Of a stretch of DNA of 64,000 bases, positions 47,348 to 55,661 are shown one piece after another; the stretch's first letter is position 1; each line of letters opens with the position of its first letter. The stretch spans positions 165,406 through 229,405 of the forward strand of contig CAYGLK010000002.1 of NCBI GenBank assembly GCA_964350985.1, in the 5' to 3' direction. The notes beneath the pieces were generated by a model. It searched no databases, was not told where the DNA came from, and was given only the letters and a program-made list of their open reading frames with translations. The position numbers and the translations under genes were made by a program. Source of the DNA: an uncultured Candidatus Saccharibacteria bacterium. Lineage in GTDB: Bacteria; Patescibacteriota; Minisyncoccia; Phycocordibacterales; UBA918.

Positions 47348-47782
47348 TTAGTACCCAAACTCTGAATAGAAGACATTATTACTATAGTTCAGAAGAGACA
47401 CTTTTACATAATCAACAATATTTTCTGGCAGCTGATCTAACTTAAACCAACTTAAGTCATCACATTTTTCTGGTTCTTTGTTACTGATCTCTCCAGAGTA
47501 AGCCTTAGTGGTCATAAAAAAATCAATTCTCTCATCGACACTCCCCTTTCGCTGCATTACGTGGACAACAGATATGTCATCAACTTTAAGATCGATTCCT
47601 ATTTCTTCTTTAATTTCACGCACGCAGCCTTCACGAGCGGTTTCATTTCCTTCTAGATGACCAGCAGGTACACCATAATACCCGTCCATAAAACCCGTGT
47701 TACAACGTCTTTGCAAAAGAATTTCATCACCTTTAATTAGGAATAGATATGCGGAACCAATATATGTAAATCTGTCTGTCAT
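47348..47782 (-). CDS. NUDIX hydrolase
   Basis: 144 aa; Nudix box GHLEGNETAREGCVREIKEEIGI. TGcTATACT box 8 nt upstream of the ATG. Confidence 0.75.
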   Translation of the reverse strand: MTDRFTYIGSAYLFLIKGDEILLQRRCNTGFMDGYYGVPAGHLEGNETAREGCVREIKEEIGIDLKVDDISVVHVMQRKGSVDERIDFFMTTKAYSGEISNKEPEKCDDLSWFKLDQLPENIVDYVKVSLLNYSNNVFYSEFGY

Positions 47783-47820
47783 TGAGAAAGTATAGCAAAA
47801 TATAAAGTGCGGTTAAAACA

Positions 47821-47853
47821 TGCAAAAAGCTGACCATAGGCCAGCTTTTTGCA
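47821..47853. terminator. Hairpin tgcaaaaagctgacc-ata-ggccagctttttgca between two NUDIX genes
   Basis: 15-bp near-perfect palindrome. Confidence 0.55.
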
Positions 47854-47863
47854 TACTAAACTC

Positions 47864-48367
47864 TTATCCAAAATTAAGCTTCTCTCCCCGCAAGAGCTGA
47901 AATGCTTTAACTAAAGCTTTTATCTCTGGGTCATCACCTCTTTTGTTCTTAGTCATCACTTTTTCAATCTCATTTTCAGCAAACCATCCATATTCTGAGT
48001 GATCATCCATATTAATTTTAATATCTTCTACATTAGAAATAATGGTAGCAAAAAATATTACTTCTACTGAATGTGAACCTTTTACATTATTCATATATGT
48101 AAAAGAGGTAAGTGGATCTCCCACGTTAATCTCAATGTCAAATTCCTCTTTGATTTCTCGTTTTAGGCCATCAACAATATTTTCTCCAAAATCTATGTGC
48201 CCACCAGGTATCTCATACACACTTGGTAGAAACTTTTTTGTTGCTGCTCTCTTCGGCAGAAAGATTTTTTCTACACCATTAAATTTTTTATGAATAAGAG
48301 CGCACGCGGTTATAACTTGCTGCCCTTTTGCAGGCACCTCGCTATCGTGAGAAGTTTTAGTTTCCAT
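47864..48367 (-). CDS. NUDIX hydrolase (probable start at METKTSHD; the ORF track's 20-codon 5' extension is the conserved leader uORF)
   Basis: Nudix box GGHIDFGENIVDGLKREIKEEFDI. The upstream in-frame MLSEPETTRLGTLL... corresponds to repeat family B. Confidence 0.7.
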   Translation of the reverse strand: METKTSHDSEVPAKGQQVITACALIHKKFNGVEKIFLPKRAATKKFLPSVYEIPGGHIDFGENIVDGLKREIKEEFDIEINVGDPLTSFTYMNNVKGSHSVEVIFFATIISNVEDIKINMDDHSEYGWFAENEIEKVMTKNKRGDDPEIKALVKAFQLLRGEKLNFG

Positions 48368-48390
48368 AAAGTAAATATTATTTTGTAAGA

Positions 48391-48457
48391 GGGTGCCAAG
48401 ACGCGTTGTCTCCGGCTCTGATAGCATTAAACTACCTGAAAATAATTATTTTGCAAG
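48391..48457 (-). promoter_or_regulatory. Repeat family B copy 1: TTGCAA -35 box, leaderless uORF (MLSEPETTRLGT...) and conserved leader upstream of NUDIX 47864..48367
   Basis: About 50-nt block 48391-48439 is near-identical to 51122-51172; the ATG of the uORF is at 48425-48427 (minus). Confidence 0.55.
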
Positions 48458-48495
48458 TTTTTAGTATTTGTCTAATAAGTTAGATTTTTGAAAAT

Positions 48496-48867
48496 TTAAT
48501 TTAAAGTAGAACCACTTCCAAGATGAAAGTGGAGCTGGGCCACTTCTTGCCTCTTTCCTCCATTGGTAACTATAGTGTAATCAGTGTCTTGCCAGCCTTT
48601 GTCTAAAATAATTTCTTGAGCGACCTCAAGGCATTCTTTTATGTATTTAAAATCATCAGGAGTAGCTTCAGACAGGTTTTTGATGGCTTTTTTAGGGACA
48701 ATCAATATATGCTCTTCCCAGTGCGGTTTAGGGTGCTTAAAGGCAATTACTTTATCAGTTTCCTTAATTCTTTTTACCGGTAAAAGGCCGGATAGTTTTC
48801 CAAAGGCTACTCCAACAATTAATTCACCCAGAGGTGACTTTGCTAGAGTTAAAAGCAATTTTTTCAT
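48496..48867 (-). CDS. HIT-like hydrolase
   Basis: 123 aa; C-terminal HFHLG histidine motif. Leaderless-type promoter module directly upstream. Confidence 0.5.
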   Translation of the reverse strand: MKKLLLTLAKSPLGELIVGVAFGKLSGLLPVKRIKETDKVIAFKHPKPHWEEHILIVPKKAIKNLSEATPDDFKYIKECLEVAQEIILDKGWQDTDYTIVTNGGKRQEVAQLHFHLGSGSTLN

Positions 48868-48912
48868 AGGTTGATTATAGCAAAAGACCTTGTGGGACGA
48901 CGCTAGAACGGT
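48868..48912 (-). promoter_or_regulatory. Junction module A copy 1 (degenerate): 22-mer GTTCTAGCGTCGTCCCACAAGG plus TGcTATAAT extended -10, 7 nt before the leaderless ATG of the HIT-like gene
   Basis: Aligned by eye with copies at 50653, 52009-52050 and 52715. Confidence 0.5.
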
Positions 48913-49017
48913 TTTGATCGAAGATGAAGATATAGAATAAAAAAACTCCCCTTGTACCTTTCGGCCTCGGGGAGATTATTTGTCCATATTCAGGCTGGAT
49001 TACAGTTACTTGGCTGC

Positions 49018-49557
49018 CTAAACAACCTCACACTCAAGGAACCCTCTGATCAGTCGGATAGCTTCAAGCCGCGAGTGTCTGGGACGAAGTTCTTCATAGT
49101 AGTTTGCCTCCATTGCAAAGAGAAGTTTATTAAGCTCCTCCACCTTCGCACCAAACACGGCCTGAACAGTTTGAGTGGGGTCCTTTATCAACTCCTCACC
49201 AAGCTCAACATAGAAATAGCGAATGAGAGAGCCCACTGCAATTACCCCAGCAAGTTTCTGGCGATGTGGCGAGAGGTGCAACTCAGACAAAAGAGCATCT
49301 ATCTCCTCGATTTCTATCTTGGGAATTGCTGACACTGGGACATTTTCGTCCTGTGCCCGTTTCAGAGTCTGAAGCGTTAGTCCTCCAGCACAAGCTTGAG
49401 CCTCTGAACCAGTGACAAATTCCATCAAACCTTTTGACATATCATCATTCCATCCACAAAGTGGCATACATCCTCCAAATATCAATGTTTTTAAAGAACT
49501 ATCAAAAATCTTTTGATAGACCAAGTTTAAGAATATAGCAATATATAATTTTGGCAT
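49018..49557 (-). CDS. Hypothetical protein (GC-rich islet)
   Basis: 179 aa ORF; the minus-strand terminator 48953-48990 follows it. Start uncertain. Confidence 0.35.
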   Translation of the reverse strand: MPKLYIAIFLNLVYQKIFDSSLKTLIFGGCMPLCGWNDDMSKGLMEFVTGSEAQACAGGLTLQTLKRAQDENVPVSAIPKIEIEEIDALLSELHLSPHRQKLAGVIAVGSLIRYFYVELGEELIKDPTQTVQAVFGAKVEELNKLLFAMEANYYEELRPRHSRLEAIRLIRGFLECEVV

Positions 49558-49613
49558 CTAAATAATTATTTATTTAGAAATGCATGATATACCAATTTAA
49601 ATATAGCTAATTT

Positions 49614-49634
49614 TTACTCTACTATGTCCAAAAT
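49614..49634. promoter_or_regulatory. Perfect palindrome ATGTCCAAAATATGGACAT upstream of TrmB-like gene 49671..50441 (candidate operator)
   Basis: 7-bp arms, 5-nt spacer, in an AT-rich promoter region. Confidence 0.4.
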
Positions 49635-49670
49635 ATGGACATAATAGATACTGTTTGATATCATTAAGCA

Positions 49671-50441
49671 ATGAAAAAGTGGACAAAACAGCAGTGTACA
49701 ATACTGGGAATAGACAACAAAGAAGCAAGGATTCTTGATGTATTATCTAGCACGGCAGGAACAAATACTGTAGCCGTAGCAGAAAAATCTTTTATTCCAC
49801 GCATAACTACCAGACGGATATTACAAAAATTAGTGAGCCGAGGACTAGTCACGCGAACCAAACTCAAACAATCAATCAACTGGACATTAGTAAGTCCAAC
49901 AGTATTCGAAAAGAAAATCGCTTCAATATTTCAAGACTCTGATTTGTTCCATACTAGAAACATCGGTTTATCAGAAGTAGGTAGTCTAAATATCTACAGG
50001 GGTGTGAAAGAGATGATTGAAAGTAACCGCAAAATACTTATCGCACATACTGGTGAACGAGTACTAGCCATAGAGCCAAATGGAATTTGGAAGCACTTTG
50101 CGAAAATTGATCCTGAGCCAGTCCATCAATTAAATCTGTTACGGAAAGAAAAACAAATATTAATAGAGATGGTAGCAGAGGAAGGCTTTAAAGAGGTTAT
50201 AGGCAATATTGTCCATCCAAATGTAATCAATTCATTTATGTCTCTCGCTGTTGATATAAAAGTGGTACCTGCTGGTACTCTAGATTCTGCAACAGAAATT
50301 CTCATCTTTCGCGACCAATTATTATTTATGGATTGGGCACATTTAGTAGCAGTAGAAGTTAAAAATCCTAGTACACTTCGTGTCATCAAAGCAATGTTTC
50401 GAACACTTCAATCGAGTGGCTACGACTATGCTTTGAAATAA
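49671..50441 (+). CDS. Putative wHTH transcriptional regulator, TrmB-like paralog
   Basis: 256 aa; N-terminal LGIDNKEARILDVLSSTAGTNTVAVAEKSFIPRITTRRILQKLVSRGLV resembles the TrmB/MarR winged helix. Palindrome ATGTCCAAAATATGGACAT lies 40 nt upstream. Confidence 0.45.
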   Translation: MKKWTKQQCTILGIDNKEARILDVLSSTAGTNTVAVAEKSFIPRITTRRILQKLVSRGLVTRTKLKQSINWTLVSPTVFEKKIASIFQDSDLFHTRNIGLSEVGSLNIYRGVKEMIESNRKILIAHTGERVLAIEPNGIWKHFAKIDPEPVHQLNLLRKEKQILIEMVAEEGFKEVIGNIVHPNVINSFMSLAVDIKVVPAGTLDSATEILIFRDQLLFMDWAHLVAVEVKNPSTLRVIKAMFRTLQSSGYDYALK

Positions 50442-50453
50442 ATACGCAGCTAC

Positions 50454-50652
50454 GGGTGAGAAGAATCGGCGCCAGTTCTAAATAAAATTCTTCGTAAACT
50501 CGAATTTATATTAAGAACCCGCTGCCCCGTCGCTTCTGTACGGACGCTATGCCTTGCGTCCGGCTTCGCCAGAAGCTCTCTTCGATTCTTCTCACACGCT
50601 ACAAACAGCAACGGCCTCAATACATTCGTATTGAGGCCGGCCGATTTGTGCG
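50454..50652. repeat. C-element copy 1 (199 bp): bounded by inverted 15-17-nt copies of the tRNA-Gly(TCC) 3' end (GGGTGAGAAGAATCG ... CGATTCTTCTCACACGC), internally multi-hairpin, then hairpin ggcctcaatac-attc-gtattgaggcc
   Basis: Identical (by eye, 199/199 or near) to 55184-55382. Begins 13 nt after the stop of the TrmB-like gene 49671..50441. Confidence 0.7.
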
Positions 50653-50674
50653 CCTTGTGGGACGACGTTAGAAC
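50653..50674 (-). repeat. Junction 22-mer copy 2 (AAGTTCTAACGTCGTCCCACAAGG on minus), abutting the NUDIX 50677 stop codon and the 199-bp C-element
   Basis: Read directly. Confidence 0.6.
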
Positions 50675-50676
50675 TT

Positions 50677-51099
50677 TTATTGATGATTTGCAGGATCAAA
50701 CATTCCTAAAAGTTTTTTAGGTCCGTCAAAAAGTTCCATACCCTCAACATCGTCTTTGTTAACAAAGCGTATTTCAATACATTCATCTGAAGGTGTGAAA
50801 TTTAAATGCTCTAATTTAGTTTCATACAAAACATTAGCGATCCTTATTTCGGGGTGGTTTGTACTCCTGCCAGTTATGAAGTAGCTAGGGTTACTTGCTA
50901 TGTAAACTGCTTTCAGTCCCATCTCTTCCATTAATTCTCTAGGTAAATCTTCTTGAGGTGTAACGTCCCAATCTAAACCACCGCCCGGTAATTCCCATCG
51001 CCCGTTCTCCTCTTTACAGAGTAAGAATTTATCTTTTGTCTCGTTTAGAACTAAAGCTTTAACACTGACACGATAAAAACAGTTTGGTATTTCACTCAT
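50677..51099 (-). CDS. NUDIX hydrolase
   Basis: 140 aa; Nudix box GGGLDWDVTPQEDLPRELMEEMGL. Preceded by family-B leader with 13-codon uORF. Confidence 0.75.
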   Translation of the reverse strand: MSEIPNCFYRVSVKALVLNETKDKFLLCKEENGRWELPGGGLDWDVTPQEDLPRELMEEMGLKAVYIASNPSYFITGRSTNHPEIRIANVLYETKLEHLNFTPSDECIEIRFVNKDDVEGMELFDGPKKLLGMFDPANHQ

Positions 51100-51116
51100 A
51101 AATATATTTTATGTTT

Positions 51117-51188
51117 TTAATAGGTGCCAAGACGCTGCGCCTCCGGCTCTGATAGCATTAAGTTACCTGAGGAGTGGTTATGTTGCAA
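51117..51188 (-). promoter_or_regulatory. Repeat family B copy 2: TTGCAA -35 box plus 13-codon leaderless uORF MLSEPEAQRLGTY* (51117..51158) 17 nt upstream of the NUDIX 50677..51099 start
   Basis: Direct sequence comparison with copy 1; uORF translated by hand. Confidence 0.55.
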
Positions 51189-51202
51189 GTTTTGAGCCTT
51201 AG

Positions 51203-52006
51203 TTAGTCACTAAAAAGCTCTTTTTTATATGTATTTTTTATTTGCTCAACTCCTTTATCTGTTTCAATTTCACAAGAAGAATAATTAGTCTCGTTTATAT
51301 AAAGTCGCTTGCTACCAAAATCAAAACGTTTGCACCAATCTCCATGAACATTATCTACTTTATGTTGGCTATTTTTATTTAAATATCCTATTTCTATAAC
51401 TGAACCAGAAATATTCGTTAGATCTAATAAATCTTGAATTGGAAAGAGGCTGTAGTAAATTGAAGGAATGCTTCCTGAAGCGGTAAATGTCTTCCTAATC
51501 AATACATCATACTGACCATGTTTATTTTTAACATCTGAAACAAAGTTTTGCTCTGCATTAGAAAGATTTGTGTCATTTTTGAGAATCTCTGTCTTCCAAG
51601 TAGTTTTATATTCTCCATTATTATGTTGAAAAGAAATATCACTCAAAATTTCTTCTGGCGCATTTGAATAGCTTTGGTTCCAAATGCAAAACTCTTTTTC
51701 ACTATCAAGTTTACGGGTAGTCTGAATAGTATGGGAATTTTTTCCGGTAGTATATTTAACAGTTTCCTTTACTTCATTGTCACCAATTTTAAGAAATCCA
51801 TTTTTTTCGAAATCAGTTAGGGTATCTAGTACGACCCACTCGTTTTGCGGAGGTAAACCAAAAACTTCTACCCACCCAAGAAAGGTGTGGTACCGAGGCA
51901 AAACAATAGAAACCTGTTTACCATTAATTTCTAATTTAACGTCGTAGTAGTAAACATTATCTTTATATTCTTTAAATGAAATGTCCAGATTGCCTATTTT
52001 CTTCAT
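51203..52006 (-). CDS. Hypothetical protein
   Basis: 267 aa, AT-rich, no motif recognised. Leaderless-type promoter module directly upstream. Confidence 0.45.
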   Translation of the reverse strand: MKKIGNLDISFKEYKDNVYYYDVKLEINGKQVSIVLPRYHTFLGWVEVFGLPPQNEWVVLDTLTDFEKNGFLKIGDNEVKETVKYTTGKNSHTIQTTRKLDSEKEFCIWNQSYSNAPEEILSDISFQHNNGEYKTTWKTEILKNDTNLSNAEQNFVSDVKNKHGQYDVLIRKTFTASGSIPSIYYSLFPIQDLLDLTNISGSVIEIGYLNKNSQHKVDNVHGDWCKRFDFGSKRLYINETNYSSCEIETDKGVEQIKNTYKKELFSD

Positions 52007-52008
52007 AG

Positions 52009-52050
52009 TTTGATTATAGCAAAACTAACCTTTTGGGATGATGTTAGAAC
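52009..52050 (-). promoter_or_regulatory. Junction module A copy 3: 22-mer overlapping the NUDIX 52044 stop (…EKF-TAA-C…) plus TGcTATAAT-N7-ATG of gene 51203..52006
   Basis: Read directly. Confidence 0.55.
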
Positions 52051-52508
52051 TTTTCTTGAGTATCAGGAAAAGCAAGATTATAAAATTGCTTGAAAAGAGG
52101 AGATATGTTACTTGGTAAGTTATCTTTATCAAACCAGCCTGCTTCTTTAATTTCGTTTAGGTCGATTGTAATTTCACCCTCATTAGCATTAGCAAAAAAG
52201 ACATGGATAGTGTCTTTCTTAAACTCCCCATTATATTTAATTGAACCAAGTTGCTTAATGTTTTTTAACGACAAACCAACTTCTTCTTTCACTTCTCGAA
52301 TTACAGCTTGCTCAAGACTCTCACCCATTTTGATTCCTCCACCAACAGTCGTAAGTAGAGGACTGCCGTATGTATGTTTAATTAAAAGTATTTTGTTTTC
52401 GAGAGTAACAACACATCGGACACCTTCAGTTGTTGGTCTTCTTAAAAACCAATAAGCCTGCAGTACAGGGTAACCAATTTTGTAGAGAGTAGCTTTACTG
52501 AAAATCAT
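52044..52508 (-). CDS. NUDIX hydrolase
   Basis: 154 aa; Nudix box GGGIKMGESLEQAVIREVKEEVGL. Ends ...EKF* inside the junction 22-mer. Confidence 0.75.
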   Translation of the reverse strand: MIFSKATLYKIGYPVLQAYWFLRRPTTEGVRCVVTLENKILLIKHTYGSPLLTTVGGGIKMGESLEQAVIREVKEEVGLSLKNIKQLGSIKYNGEFKKDTIHVFFANANEGEITIDLNEIKEAGWFDKDNLPSNISPLFKQFYNLAFPDTQEKF

Positions 52509-52528: not shown

Positions 52529-52714
52529 GCGGGTGAGAAGAATCGGGGTCAAGTTTCTAAATAAAATTGTTCGCTAGCTCCAATTTTACTAAGAACTTTC
52601 TCCCCGGACTCGCAGGCCCAAAGGGTCCCCTGCTCCGTCTTTCGATTCTTCTCACCCGCTACCAACGGCAAAGGCCGCCAATGCTTTCGCATTGGCGGCC
52701 TGCCGATTGGTGCA
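52529..52714. repeat. Divergent C-like element: same terminal inverted tRNA-Gly 3'-end copies (GCGGGTGAGAAGAATCG ... CGATTCTTCTCACCCGC) and same helix layout, with compensatory substitutions (aaaattg/caatttt vs aaaattc/gaattt; hairpin ggccgccaatgc-tttc-gcattggcggcc)
   Basis: Aligned by eye to copy 1; stems conserved, sequences differ. Confidence 0.55.
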
Positions 52715-52736
52715 CCTTGTGGGACGGCGTTAGAAC
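52715..52736 (-). repeat. Junction 22-mer copy 4, overlapping the stop of the HExxH gene (…GEKF-TAA-CGCCGTCCCACAAGG) and abutting the divergent C-element
   Basis: Read directly. Confidence 0.6.
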
Positions 52737-53182
52737 TTTTCTCCAACCTGAACCAAAGGGGCTTTATTTTCAATAAATGTTAGTTTTCGTTTATCTCTTA
52801 AATAATTGAACAAACTAAAGATTTGTCTATTTTTCAAATAATTTAAATTTTCTTGGTTGCGATAAGCTTCTTGTTCAACAGCTCGGTATAAGTATCTATT
52901 TTCCGGATTGAGTCTTAAGAGTAAACCAGAGTAAATATCTTCTATAAATCCCAGAACCAAACAACCAATGAATAAGGTTTCCAATTGTTGTCGGAAATGA
53001 ATTCTTTCATGGTTTATAAAGACAGGAGTTGCATATTCTTCTTTACGGACAAAAATAAAAGGAAATATTGCTGCCGCTTTTGCTTTTTGAGCCCCACTTT
53101 TACCAGATGAAAAATATCCAGCTATTTTTACTAGTAGCTCTGATTCAATAATATTTGCCCCATGTTTCCGACAGAGTTGCAT
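52730..53182 (-). CDS. Hypothetical protein with HExxH motif (possible small zinc hydrolase)
   Basis: 150 aa; HERIH motif. Ends ...EKF* inside the junction 22-mer. Confidence 0.4.
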   Translation of the reverse strand: MQLCRKHGANIIESELLVKIAGYFSSGKSGAQKAKAAAIFPFIFVRKEEYATPVFINHERIHFRQQLETLFIGCLVLGFIEDIYSGLLLRLNPENRYLYRAVEQEAYRNQENLNYLKNRQIFSLFNYLRDKRKLTFIENKAPLVQVGEKF

Positions 53183-54248: not shown

Positions 54249-54423
54249 TGTTTTTCCTCCCTTTATGGGCTTTGTGTAAACGAACTGTTTTAACCGATAT
54301 TAAGATACAATATAAAATACTATATGTCAATAATCTCGTCACTTAGTCACGTCTATATTCAGAATACTGTTGTTTTATAATAGCATTTATGTTATATTTA
54401 TTTTGACAAAATTGTCGTCATTT

Positions 54424-55155
54424 ATGAAAAATAACTACCTAACTGCTTCCGGTCTTGATGAAAAGGAATCTACCGCCTATATAGCTCTACTTGAGCTCGG
54501 AGAGGCAACCATGAGTGAACTTACAAAGAAATCAGAACTAAAAAGGTCGACTCTATATTTTATTGTTGAAGCACTTCACAAAAAAAGATTGATTGGTATT
54601 GTAAAAAAGGGGAAGAAAACCGTCTACTCGGCCGAAGACCCCAAAAGGCTCCTTGAGCAAGCCGACGAGAACCGACGCAATCTTGAATATGCGATGCCAG
54701 AACTTTTATCTGTTGCCAACAATATTGTCAAAAAGCCAAAGGTGAGATTTTTTGAAGGGGTGGACGGTATCAAAGAAGTGTACAGGGATATTCTTAGATA
54801 CCCTGATAATAAGATTTGCGCTTGGGTATCGGAGTCGATGATTACAGAATTTGATTCAAGCTTTATTACTGACCACTATATTCCGAAACGGCTTGAAAAG
54901 AAAATTTGGGCAGAGGTGATTGCCTCTGATACTACTGTTGGTAAGGATTTTAAGTCTAAGGATCTTGAGGCGCTACGAAAAACAAGGCTGCTCGATGAGT
55001 CGCAATTCCCTCTTTCGATTGAAATTAGTCTCTATGGTAAAGATAAAATTGGTTTTATGTCGATAGATGACAAACTTGGCCTCATTGTGGAAAGTAAACC
55101 CATAGCTGACACATTAAAGAGCATATTCAAAGCACAATGGGATTCTCTGTCTTGA
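54424..55155 (+). CDS. TrmB family transcriptional regulator
   Basis: N-terminal wHTH TAYIALLELGEATMSELTKKSELKRSTLYFIVEALHKKRLI plus C-terminal TrmB-like domain. Start set at MKNNYL. Confidence 0.55.
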   Translation: MKNNYLTASGLDEKESTAYIALLELGEATMSELTKKSELKRSTLYFIVEALHKKRLIGIVKKGKKTVYSAEDPKRLLEQADENRRNLEYAMPELLSVANNIVKKPKVRFFEGVDGIKEVYRDILRYPDNKICAWVSESMITEFDSSFITDHYIPKRLEKKIWAEVIASDTTVGKDFKSKDLEALRKTRLLDESQFPLSIEISLYGKDKIGFMSIDDKLGLIVESKPIADTLKSIFKAQWDSLS

Positions 55156-55183
55156 TCGTATTCATAAAATAAAGTTAAATTTC

Positions 55184-55382
55184 GGGTGAGAAGAATCGGC
55201 GCCAGTTCTAAATAAAATTCTTCGTAAACTCGAATTTATATTAAGAACCCGCTGCCCCGTCGCTTCTGTACGGACGCTATGCCTTGCGTCCGGCTTCGCC
55301 AGAAGCTCTCTTCGATTCTTCTCACACGCTACAAACAGCAACGGCCTCAATACATTCGTATTGAGGCCGGCCGATTTGTGCG
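55184..55382. repeat. C-element copy 2 (199 bp), directly downstream of TrmB gene 54424..55155
   Basis: Near-identical to 50454-50652. Confidence 0.7.
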
Positions 55383-55590
55383 GGTGAGAAGATCGGTCAC
55401 GAGTTACTAACTATAATAGTTCGCTTCGCTCCTTTTCTAGTAAGTACTCTCGACCCCAGCTCGCTCATTGCTACGCAATATCGCTGCGCTTTTCGATTCT
55501 TCACGCAAAGCGCGCAGGCGCTTTGCTTCACCCGCACACTATGTTTCAAACGAAAAAGCCCCTTGAAGGGCTTTTTCGGAAACATATGTG
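55382..55590. repeat. Second element between C-copy 2 and tRNA-Gly(TCC): starts GCGGGTGAGAAGATCGGTCACGAGTTAC (same variant end as 53209-53240), ends with an interrupted tRNA-Gly 3' end (ttcgattcttc-[acgcaaagcgcgcaggcgctttgc]-ttcacccgc), then hairpin/T-run 55546-55578
   Basis: Read directly; the shared 5' segment with 53209-53240 is about 26 nt. Confidence 0.5.
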
Positions 55591-55661
55591 TGCGGGTGAG
55601 AAGAATCGAACTCCCGACTACTGCTTGGAAGGCAGTCGTTTTACCACTAAACTACACCCGC
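55591..55661 (-). tRNA. tRNA-Gly (anticodon TCC)
   Basis: Manual fold of the reverse complement: acceptor GCGGGTG/CACCCGC, D-arm GTTT-AGTGGTA-AAAC, anticodon loop CTTCCAA, T-loop TTCGATT, discriminator A; no encoded CCA. Confidence 0.8.

Follow-up and report, generated by a model that had tools for sequence, protein, structure and literature searches.

The window analysed here is a stretch of 64,000 nucleotides (nt) from an uncultured Candidatus Saccharibacteria bacterium of the Patescibacteriota (assembly GCA_964350985.1, contig CAYGLK010000002.1, positions 165,406 to 229,405). On its minus strand it carries two genes for NUDIX proteins, NUDIX-1 (47864..48367, 167 amino acids (aa) from METKTSH, based on homolog lengths and Pfam NUDIX matches) and NUDIX-2 (50677..51099, 140 aa), each preceded by a closely similar leader with a short hairpin. 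Comparison with related leaders from other genomes points to a cis-regulatory stem-loop in the 5' leader RNA, which the NUDIX-2 family bears regularly.

The leader of NUDIX-1 (copy 1, 48368-48456, minus strand) has the layout CTTGCAA-N16-TAGTTT-AATGCTATCAGA-GCCGGAGACAACGCGTCTTGGC-A-CCCTCTTAC...ATG. It includes a −35-like hexamer TTGCAA (48451..48456), assigned from the sequence and from a composite promoter geometry seen across instances, and a weak −10-like hexamer TAGTTT (48429..48434), which would put the transcription start near the A at 48422. These are followed by the single-stranded 5' segment AUCAGA (48417..48422), a match in the alignment to the family consensus A-Y-W-C-N-G-M, by the stem-loop GCCGGAGAC-AACGC-GUCUUGGC with eight pairs, a bulged G and a 5-nt loop (48395..48416, from the alignment and the covariance model), and by an invariant A and an A/U-rich linker, which has no Shine-Dalgarno sequence and extends to the NUDIX-1 start codon (48368..48394). 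The leader of NUDIX-2 (copy 2, 51100-51188, minus strand) has the same layout with TAACTT and GCCGGAGGCGCAGCGTCTTGGC in place of the corresponding parts, including the −35-like TTGCAA (51183..51188), the weak −10-like TAACTT (51160..51165) with a probable start near the A at 51153, the stem-loop GCCGGAGGC-GCAGC-GUCUUGGC (51126..51147, likewise from the alignment and the covariance model), and the invariant A with its A/U-rich linker, again without a Shine-Dalgarno sequence (51100..51125). A first-pass annotation of this DNA had placed TTGCAA 17 nt upstream of the weak −10 in both leaders, which is correct for copy 2, but the distance in copy 1 is 16 nt.

The same annotation had put the identity of the two leaders at about 85%; the conserved pair is real, but 42 of 51 positions (82%) are identical between 48391-48439 and 51122-51172 on the minus strand. 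The similar block extends to approximately 71 nt, and the sequence flanking it cannot be aligned. Within the 64 kb, the 18-mer ATGCTATCAGAGCCGGAG occurs exactly twice, a number that none of 100 shuffled sequences reached, and no third site was found with up to three mismatches allowed. A covariance model of the motif scored only the two leaders in the window, with 54.1 bits for copy 1 and 49.7 bits for copy 2, and no further sites; the next best match had 12.6 bits (E of about 0.9).

In total, 24 unique instances of the element were collected through contig look-ups from exact proteins and one metagenome scan with a degenerate pattern, which was built from the invariant columns with the upper stem fixed and only transitions allowed in the lower stem. 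The alignment of 23 sequences (A3) has 13 invariant columns among 42 and defines as its conserved core a 22-nt stem-loop of eight pairs, three in the lower and five in the upper stem. The lower stem consists of three variable pairs (G-C, C-G and C-G), and the upper stem, GAGAC/GUCUU in the register used here, is nearly invariant and contains a G·U (pair 4) in all 23 sequences, with variation at one pair only (pair 7, A-U to G·U in two sequences). Between the stems lies a bulged G, invariant in the alignment, the register of the bulge being ambiguous between two adjacent Gs. The loop of 5 nt follows RMNGC, with AACGC in 15 sequences, AAAGC in three, AAUGC in three and GCAGC in two. On the 5' side of the hairpin is the conserved single-stranded segment A-Y-W-C-N-G-M, in which C (−4) and G (−2) are nearly invariant, and on the 3' side the invariant A precedes an A/U-rich tail with the consensus CCnnUUAAAA.

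Pairing in this helix was kept in 99.5% of 184 cells, compared with 36-39% when the 3' partners were slid. At lower pair 2, 16 sequences have C-G, four U·G and two U-A, and at lower pair 3, 21 have C-G and two U-A, so that double-sided changes from C-G to U-A occur at two pairs (L042/L068 and L044/L064). Both L042 and L044 were retrieved by the protein route and are free of pattern bias. The covariation score was equalled by only one of 500 column shuffles, and RNAalifold independently predicted the same helix, reading a G-to-A change in L072 as a G·U becoming A-U. Wherever only one partner of a pair changes, the sense strand gains a G·U (pair 1, G·U twice; pair 2, U·G four times; pair 7, G·U twice), and because of this the antisense helix would be only about 83% paired, as derived from the pair counts. 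The sole C×A mismatch belongs to an orphan copy without a gene (L052/L053). Across the 23 sequences, compensatory and wobble changes keep the pairing, which is specific to one RNA strand. The comparison gives a solid signal, although the structure is small and its covariation limited.

The hairpin was present before all eight distinct NUDIX-2 homologs examined (97% down to 61% identity), with its 3' arm about 24 nt before the ATG where measured. The metagenome scan gave 20 pattern hits, at least 13 of which sit 23-27 nt before an open reading frame (ORF) of the NUDIX-2 family, and two (L068 and L069) before an ORF of the NUDIX-1 family; all gene-linked instances have the same orientation and lie 23-27 nt before the ATG. 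Two further hits (L062 and L065) duplicate NUDIX-2-linked leaders (L051/L059 and L056) in loci that end before a callable ORF, and the hit in L058 resembles a chance match that the covariance model left unreported at E up to 1. Among NUDIX-1-family loci, the hairpin was found in two of five (the window and L068/69) and not in L029, L030-35 or L080, and in L030, L031 and L080 the hairpin-less gene has a leaderless-type promoter with TATACT 6-7 nt before the ATG. The difference between eight of eight NUDIX-2 and two of five NUDIX-1 loci argues that the element is primarily that of NUDIX-2 and was acquired by one branch of NUDIX-1. The covariance model detected no hairpin in 28 loci from other phyla with distant NUDIX genes, which served as negative controls and came from a protein-seeded scan of species-representative genomes that yielded only distant NUDIX-box relatives, and the motif pattern had no matches in viral contigs.

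In one locus (L060, 143-165 and downstream) the hairpin leader is intact and an IS30-like transposase ORF of 301 aa lies right after the NUDIX-2 start codon, disrupting the gene. The orphan hairpin (L052 1865-1889 and L053 2788-2812) has a GTTCTGACGTCGTCCCA box upstream and an intrinsic-terminator-like stem with a T-run downstream, with no NUDIX gene; it would be a decaying relic or else a short independent RNA.

The proteins NUDIX-1 and NUDIX-2 have the NUDIX box alone in common (36% identity over 28 aa), and each has its own large set of close homologs in metagenomes of Patescibacteria (Kaiserbacteria, Paceibacteria and 'Parcubacteria'), so by their sequences they are two separate NUDIX families. 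Neither reached an NCBIfam equivalog cut-off; their PDB and NCBIfam matches are to the generic NUDIX fold, far below cut-offs (ADP-ribose pyrophosphatase, MutT, RppH and NudI). The two genes had been regarded as paralogs of one subfamily, which does not agree with the sharing of the NUDIX box only, nor with the finding that most NUDIX-1 orthologs are without the element. Because the similarity of the proteins is restricted to that box, the leaders are not part of a larger recent duplication. This bears on a reservation that the first-pass annotation had itself raised, namely that the upstream conservation might be of nucleotides only and part of a larger duplicated segment: the conservation is indeed at the level of nucleotides and structure, but the leaders do not belong to a larger duplicated segment. 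Its proposal of a cis-regulatory leader dedicated to NUDIX genes holds as far as a conserved cis element is concerned, with eight of eight NUDIX-2 homologs and at least 15 of the 20 metagenome hits, but not for the leader peptide that it considered for this element.

That peptide was to be encoded by an upstream open reading frame (uORF), and the reading frames themselves are present as described. In copy 1, an ATG (48425-48427) opens MLSEPETTRLGT... in frame with the NUDIX-1 ORF and runs into the gene as a 20-codon N-terminal extension (187 instead of 167 aa), and in copy 2 a 13-codon ORF, MLSEPEAQRLGTY, with its stop (51117..51158, minus strand) overlaps the hairpin, ends 17 nt before the NUDIX-2 ATG and is unconserved outside this genome. 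Among the 24 unique instances, MLSEPE is encoded by the two copies of the window only; 19 are without an ATG in the 20 nt preceding the hairpin, and the ATGs of the remaining three open different frames, with unrelated peptides. The codons that differ between the window copies are non-synonymous (TT to AQ) and located in the hairpin loop; conservation follows base pairing and not the amino acids. In addition, the −10-like box ends 1 nt before the ATG of the 'uORF', and the usual transcription start would therefore fall downstream of that ATG, by about 4 nt in the window (near 48422 and 51153). Judged by this comparison, the short coding frame across the hairpin is an accident of this one genome. 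The N-terminus 'LELSEGYALGV' of another protein (P0041) was considered as a frame-shifted copy of the motif and rejected, its DNA being unrelated.

The start of NUDIX-1 is affected by the same frame. Nearly all of the 120 best NUDIX-1 homologs have 165-169 aa and start at METKTSH, which indicates that the 187-aa ORF starting at 48427 is an over-extension through the in-frame ATG, and the correct start is very likely 48367; the few longer homologs have N-terminal extensions unrelated to that of the window. The public protein set carries the 187-aa version (window 47864-48427) including the 20 codons through the hairpin, and this NUDIX annotation should be corrected for its spurious extension.

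Most genes of the organism seem to be expressed differently from the two NUDIX genes. A Shine-Dalgarno-like sequence precedes only 6 of 64 ORFs in the window, and in many genes the ATG has an extended −10 (TGnTATAAT) 6-7 nt upstream (for example, in those starting at 48867, 47782, 52006, 52508, 53182 and 63536), which suggests that leaderless mRNAs are the norm. In a mostly leaderless genome, a structured leader of about 60 nt would be exceptional and itself a sign of added control. Within approximately 5 kb (47348-52508) there are four different NUDIX genes and a gene of the HIT family (HinT/DcpS-like); two of the NUDIX genes have the hairpin leader, and the other two (47348-47782 and 52044-52508) and the HIT gene have the leaderless-type layout, with the box 6-7 nt before the ATG.

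Where enough upstream sequence was available (23 instances), 15 have a composite TTGnnn-N16-18-TAnnnT whose end lies 12-16 nt upstream of the hairpin, compared with a mean of 0.18 and a maximum of 3 in shuffled sequences. The conserved AYWCNGM segment begins with the first A found 6-9 nt (mostly 6-7) past the −10 box; with the start placed by the usual spacing of 6-8 nt between −10 and +1, an mRNA beginning at that A would carry the hairpin approximately 6-8 nt from its 5' end. Most of the instances without a promoter have tRNA-Gly(UCC) or a copy of its 3' end instead. The complete tRNA gene ends 5-10 nt before the hairpin in L066, L071 and L072, and a 3'-end copy adjoins the hairpin in L054 and L056. 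With this layout, the NUDIX-2 message must be co-transcribed with the tRNA, and 3' processing of the tRNA would again leave the hairpin a few nt from the new mRNA 5' end. Such an arrangement, with either a tRNA gene or a promoter, is unusual in a genome of the leaderless type. In seven independent loci tRNA-Gly(UCC) is at most 400 nt upstream, and in L060, L061 and L063 copies of the tRNA 3' end lie about 55-60 nt upstream of the hairpin.

In the window, tRNA-Gly(UCC) (55590..55661, minus strand), which is found close upstream of the hairpin-NUDIX-2 unit in other genomes, is 4.4 kb from this unit, with insertions bounded by tRNA 3'-end copies between them. A G+C-rich repeat of approximately 230 nt is present in three copies (50453-50680, about 52530-52745 and 55183-55420, sense on the minus strand), two of them 100% identical over 200 nt and each of these two just 3' of a TrmB-like helix-turn-helix (HTH) ORF (49671-50441 and 54370-55155). 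Each repeat ends in the exact last 19 nt or so of tRNA-Gly(UCC), CGATTCTTCTCACCCG, and contains the inverted complement. The repeats had no match in Rfam at the gathering score; they look like serial insertions at the tRNA 3' end, or possibly form a structured RNA. Duplicated tRNA 3'-end segments (60887-60926/61081-61120 and 62171-62205/62380-62414) also adjoin tRNA-Pro(UGG) and tRNA-Gly(GCC), so insertion sites in this DNA seem to include other tRNA genes. Another box, GTTCTAACGTCGTCCCAC, has four sites in the window (48892-48909, 50657-50674, 52033-52050 and 52719-52736, minus strand), is conserved between genomes (L030 2413 and 3034, L037 2926, and L052 just before the orphan hairpin), and in Kaiserbacteria CP060229 it flanks the ortholog of NUDIX-1. 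Two genes of the window, with starts at 48867 and 52006, are preceded by this box at 8-10 nt upstream of a TGCTATAAT box. It may be associated with promoters, be the site of a regulator, or mark where the 230-nt repeat ends.

Between the hairpin and the ATG, the linker of 23-27 nt is A/U-rich and without a Shine-Dalgarno sequence, and in folding predictions the region of the start codon is mostly unpaired, with nothing conserved that sequesters it. GGAG in the 5' arm was rejected as a Shine-Dalgarno sequence, given its distance of about 40 nt to the ATG and the A that L072 has as its bulge base. Also rejected was a promoter located 3' of the hairpin that would make the NUDIX mRNA leaderless: TAAAAT or TAATAT is found 6-7 nt before the ATG in the window and a few other instances and is unconserved, many instances having TAAATA, TAATAA or nothing at that position by eye. 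The promoter proposed by a scanner for copy 2 (TTGGCA-18-TATATT) would start transcription inside the coding region. No intrinsic or tRNA-trailer terminator was found, the stem being followed by A-C-C-N-N-U-U-A-A-A-A with no U-run and a terminator scan calling none at either copy. The alignment supports one helix of 8 bp with two covarying pairs and no second helix or pseudoknot; candidate pseudoknots of the loop with the tail, or of the 5' segment with the tail (AGA/UCU), were present in only two or three sequences and were rejected. In L037, L067, L072 and window copy 1, the 3' arm UUGGCAC could pair with the beginning of the coding region (GUGCCAG/UACCAA), which is treated as a coincidence attributed to V/I-P codons, since the pairing is mismatched in most instances and the distances differ between the NUDIX families. 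Rfam returned nothing beyond four tRNAs for the window at the gathering score, and for the two leaders at E up to 10 only chance-level matches to unrelated families, with ykkC subtype 2, preQ1, guanidine-II/III and ZTP unmatched. A search of full-text literature found no description of the motif.

From these observations, here it is proposed, with moderate confidence, that the element is a sense-strand stem-loop of the 5' leader RNA that regulates NUDIX mRNAs in cis. The unit would consist of a promoter-like site, 12-16 nt of which the last seven or so are A-Y-W-C-N-G-M, the 22-nt hairpin, an A, a linker of 23-27 nt and the ATG; in the alternative layout tRNA-Gly(UCC) replaces the promoter, and the mRNA 5' end would come from tRNA 3' processing. 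Since the sequence is conserved beyond the needs of pairing, and since two families that share only the NUDIX box have it, a trans-acting factor that recognises the hairpin is proposed. This factor would bind the hairpin sequence-specifically, at a site only a few nt from the 5' end and about 25 nt upstream of the start codon, and would most likely be a protein, possibly a NUDIX enzyme itself. Its binding would control ribosome access to the short unstructured linker, 5'-end-dependent decay, or both, and the outcome would be common control of two NUDIX enzymes in the manner of operators of the iron-responsive element (IRE) type. A more specific version, which is speculative and in itself improbable, sees the element as the operator of an undescribed post-transcriptional circuit of the mostly leaderless Patescibacteria, in which a NUDIX enzyme that acts on RNA 5' ends and is similar to RppH, NudC or Nudt16, or a sensor of its nucleotide substrate, recognises the stem-loop a few nt from the 5' end of its own mRNA, whether this end comes from a promoter or from tRNA-Gly processing, and sets stability or translation, the second, unrelated NUDIX family having been recruited by acquiring the leader.

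Several points weigh against the proposal of a regulatory leader RNA. Half of the eight pairs show no variation, and covariation is confined to two pairs, with perhaps 2-4 independent events; most instances were obtained with a pattern that had a fixed upper stem and allowed only transitions in the lower stem, which limits the variation that can be seen. The folding z-scores of single sequences are weak (−1.7 and −0.1), and such high conservation of primary sequence is also expected of a DNA-binding site. Transcription of the leader, its starting point and any regulatory effect are deduced from sequence, and no regulator gene lies consistently near the hairpin in the hairpin-NUDIX contexts examined. 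A TrmB-like neighbour was considered as a dedicated regulator and rejected, being present in only two of eight contexts.

The first alternative, which is considered unlikely, is that the conserved 23 bp are a DNA operator, an imperfect inverted repeat at about +8 to +30 where a transcription factor would block RNA polymerase, both for starts at the promoter and for read-through from tRNA-Gly. The 13 invariant columns in 42 and the location just downstream of a promoter-like element, as is typical of repressor operators, are what an operator would have. As DNA, however, the arms are asymmetric, with the bulged G and an invariant G·T position in all 23 sequences, and they become symmetric only with RNA wobble; the one-sided changes obey the wobble of the sense-strand RNA only, two positions change on both sides, and the orientation to the gene is constant. 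Genes for TrmB/MarR-like HTH proteins are near the element in the window (49671-50441 and 54370-55155) and in L075, but no HTH neighbour is present in L037, L043, L047, L071, L072 or L076.

The element could also be a constitutive 5' stabiliser against decay of the RNase J type, or a cleavage element between tRNA-Gly and the NUDIX mRNA, with no regulatory input, which is considered rather improbable. Stabilising 5' stem-loops are well established (ompA, aprE and ermC leaders), and the hairpin would be a few nt from the 5' end in both the promoter and the tRNA-adjoining contexts. According to a comparative study (PMC12641178), RNase J, RNase III and PNPase belong to the core RNases that Patescibacteria have kept. 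A stabiliser needs only a stable helix, whereas here the loop, bulge, upper stem and flanks are conserved in sequence across 61-97% identity of NUDIX-2, and the element is restricted to NUDIX genes, with no other covariance-model copy in the 64-kb window or the fetched loci. If the element were only a stabilising hairpin, the result would be a modest one, namely one more lineage-specific leader motif.

It is quite doubtful that the element is a very small riboswitch, in which the hairpin, the 5' segment and the A-rich tail would bind a nucleotide-derived substrate or product of NUDIX enzymes. Two different NUDIX families are served, suggesting a shared metabolite signal, and conserved unpaired nucleotides flank the helix; but the conserved region has only about 40 nt and one simple helix, with neither a second helix nor a pseudoknot supported. 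NUDIX genes are known riboswitch targets, as the ykkC subtype 2c riboswitch senses (deoxy)nucleoside diphosphates, (d)NDPs, and precedes genes for NUDIX and HAD hydrolases (Sherlock et al. 2019, reviewed in PMC7266159). The present leaders lack an expression platform, having no terminator, no Shine-Dalgarno sequence to hide and a start-codon region predicted to be open, and they matched no Rfam riboswitch at E up to 10.

Very unlikely is a recombination or mobile-element site, either a hairpin of single-stranded DNA or an att-type site, tied to insertions at tRNA-Gly(UCC). The unit does sit in an insertion hot spot of tRNA-Gly, with tRNA 3'-end copies by the hairpin (L054, L056; L060, L061, L063) and the three 230-nt repeats of the window, but the insertion junctions seen so far lie upstream of the hairpin, which keeps its 23-27 nt from the NUDIX ATG whatever lies upstream. 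Moreover, the hairpin is present beside an intact tRNA without insertion (L066, L071 and L072), was not found by the covariance model at other repeat boundaries in the window, and has no integrase gene among the neighbours scanned.

A translated leaderless uORF, whose leader peptide MLSEPE... would attenuate the NUDIX gene, has in its favour that the ORF is in both window copies with the first six codons identical and that the genome appears to use leaderless starts widely, but is hardly tenable with the ATG absent from 19 of the 24 unique instances and in other frames in three, non-synonymous differences within the loop, a −10-like box that seems too close to the ATG for a start there, and no terminator found by the scan after the hairpin.

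Taken as a regulatory leader RNA, the element is a candidate new lineage-specific cis-regulatory RNA motif with no Rfam match. Patescibacteria (Candidate Phyla Radiation) constitute a large, mostly uncultured share of bacterial diversity and have tiny genomes with few regulators, and to our knowledge very few cis-regulatory RNAs are known from them. The element may offer a tractable entry to the control of enzymes that sanitise nucleotides or act on RNA 5' ends in this group, because the motif is short, has kept its sequence as well as its structure, is tied to two NUDIX families and can be fed by a promoter or a tRNA gene.

Among known systems, attenuators of the trpL/ermCL type share with the element a short ORF before the regulated gene, in this one genome; they differ from it in that the ORF here is unconserved, its peptide lacks regulatory codons and a terminator/antiterminator pair is absent. 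The ompA, aprE and ermC leaders contain 5'-terminal stabilising stem-loops that are defined by position and stability. They resemble the element in having the hairpin a few nt from the mRNA 5' end, as is probable here in a lineage reported to have RNase J; unlike it, they are not sequence-conserved across genera or tied to one enzyme superfamily. For an RNA leader dedicated to NUDIX genes, the nearest functional parallel is the ykkC subtype 2c riboswitch; on the reading proposed here, both are cis-acting 5' leader RNAs before NUDIX hydrolase genes, which suggests control by a nucleotide-related signal. In structure they are different, since ykkC is a multi-helix aptamer of about 100 nt with an expression platform, and the present element is a 22-nt hairpin within about 40 conserved nt, without a terminator or sequestration of a Shine-Dalgarno sequence and unmatched by the ykkC model at E up to 10. 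IRE operators, known from eukaryotic ferritin mRNA and bacterial aconitase targets, are 5'-proximal and shared by related genes, and the protein bound to them blocks ribosome entry. Like them, the element combines a lower stem that varies with one conserved bulged nucleotide, a short upper stem and a conserved loop, and it would be 5'-proximal. The two have no sequence similarity, as the loop is RMNGC with a bulged G here and CAGUGN with a bulged C in the IRE. The comparison concerns a resemblance in possible working, with a binding protein that is hypothetical here, and not membership in the family; by analogy, the architecture of the NUDIX leader hairpin is most like that of an IRE-type operator.

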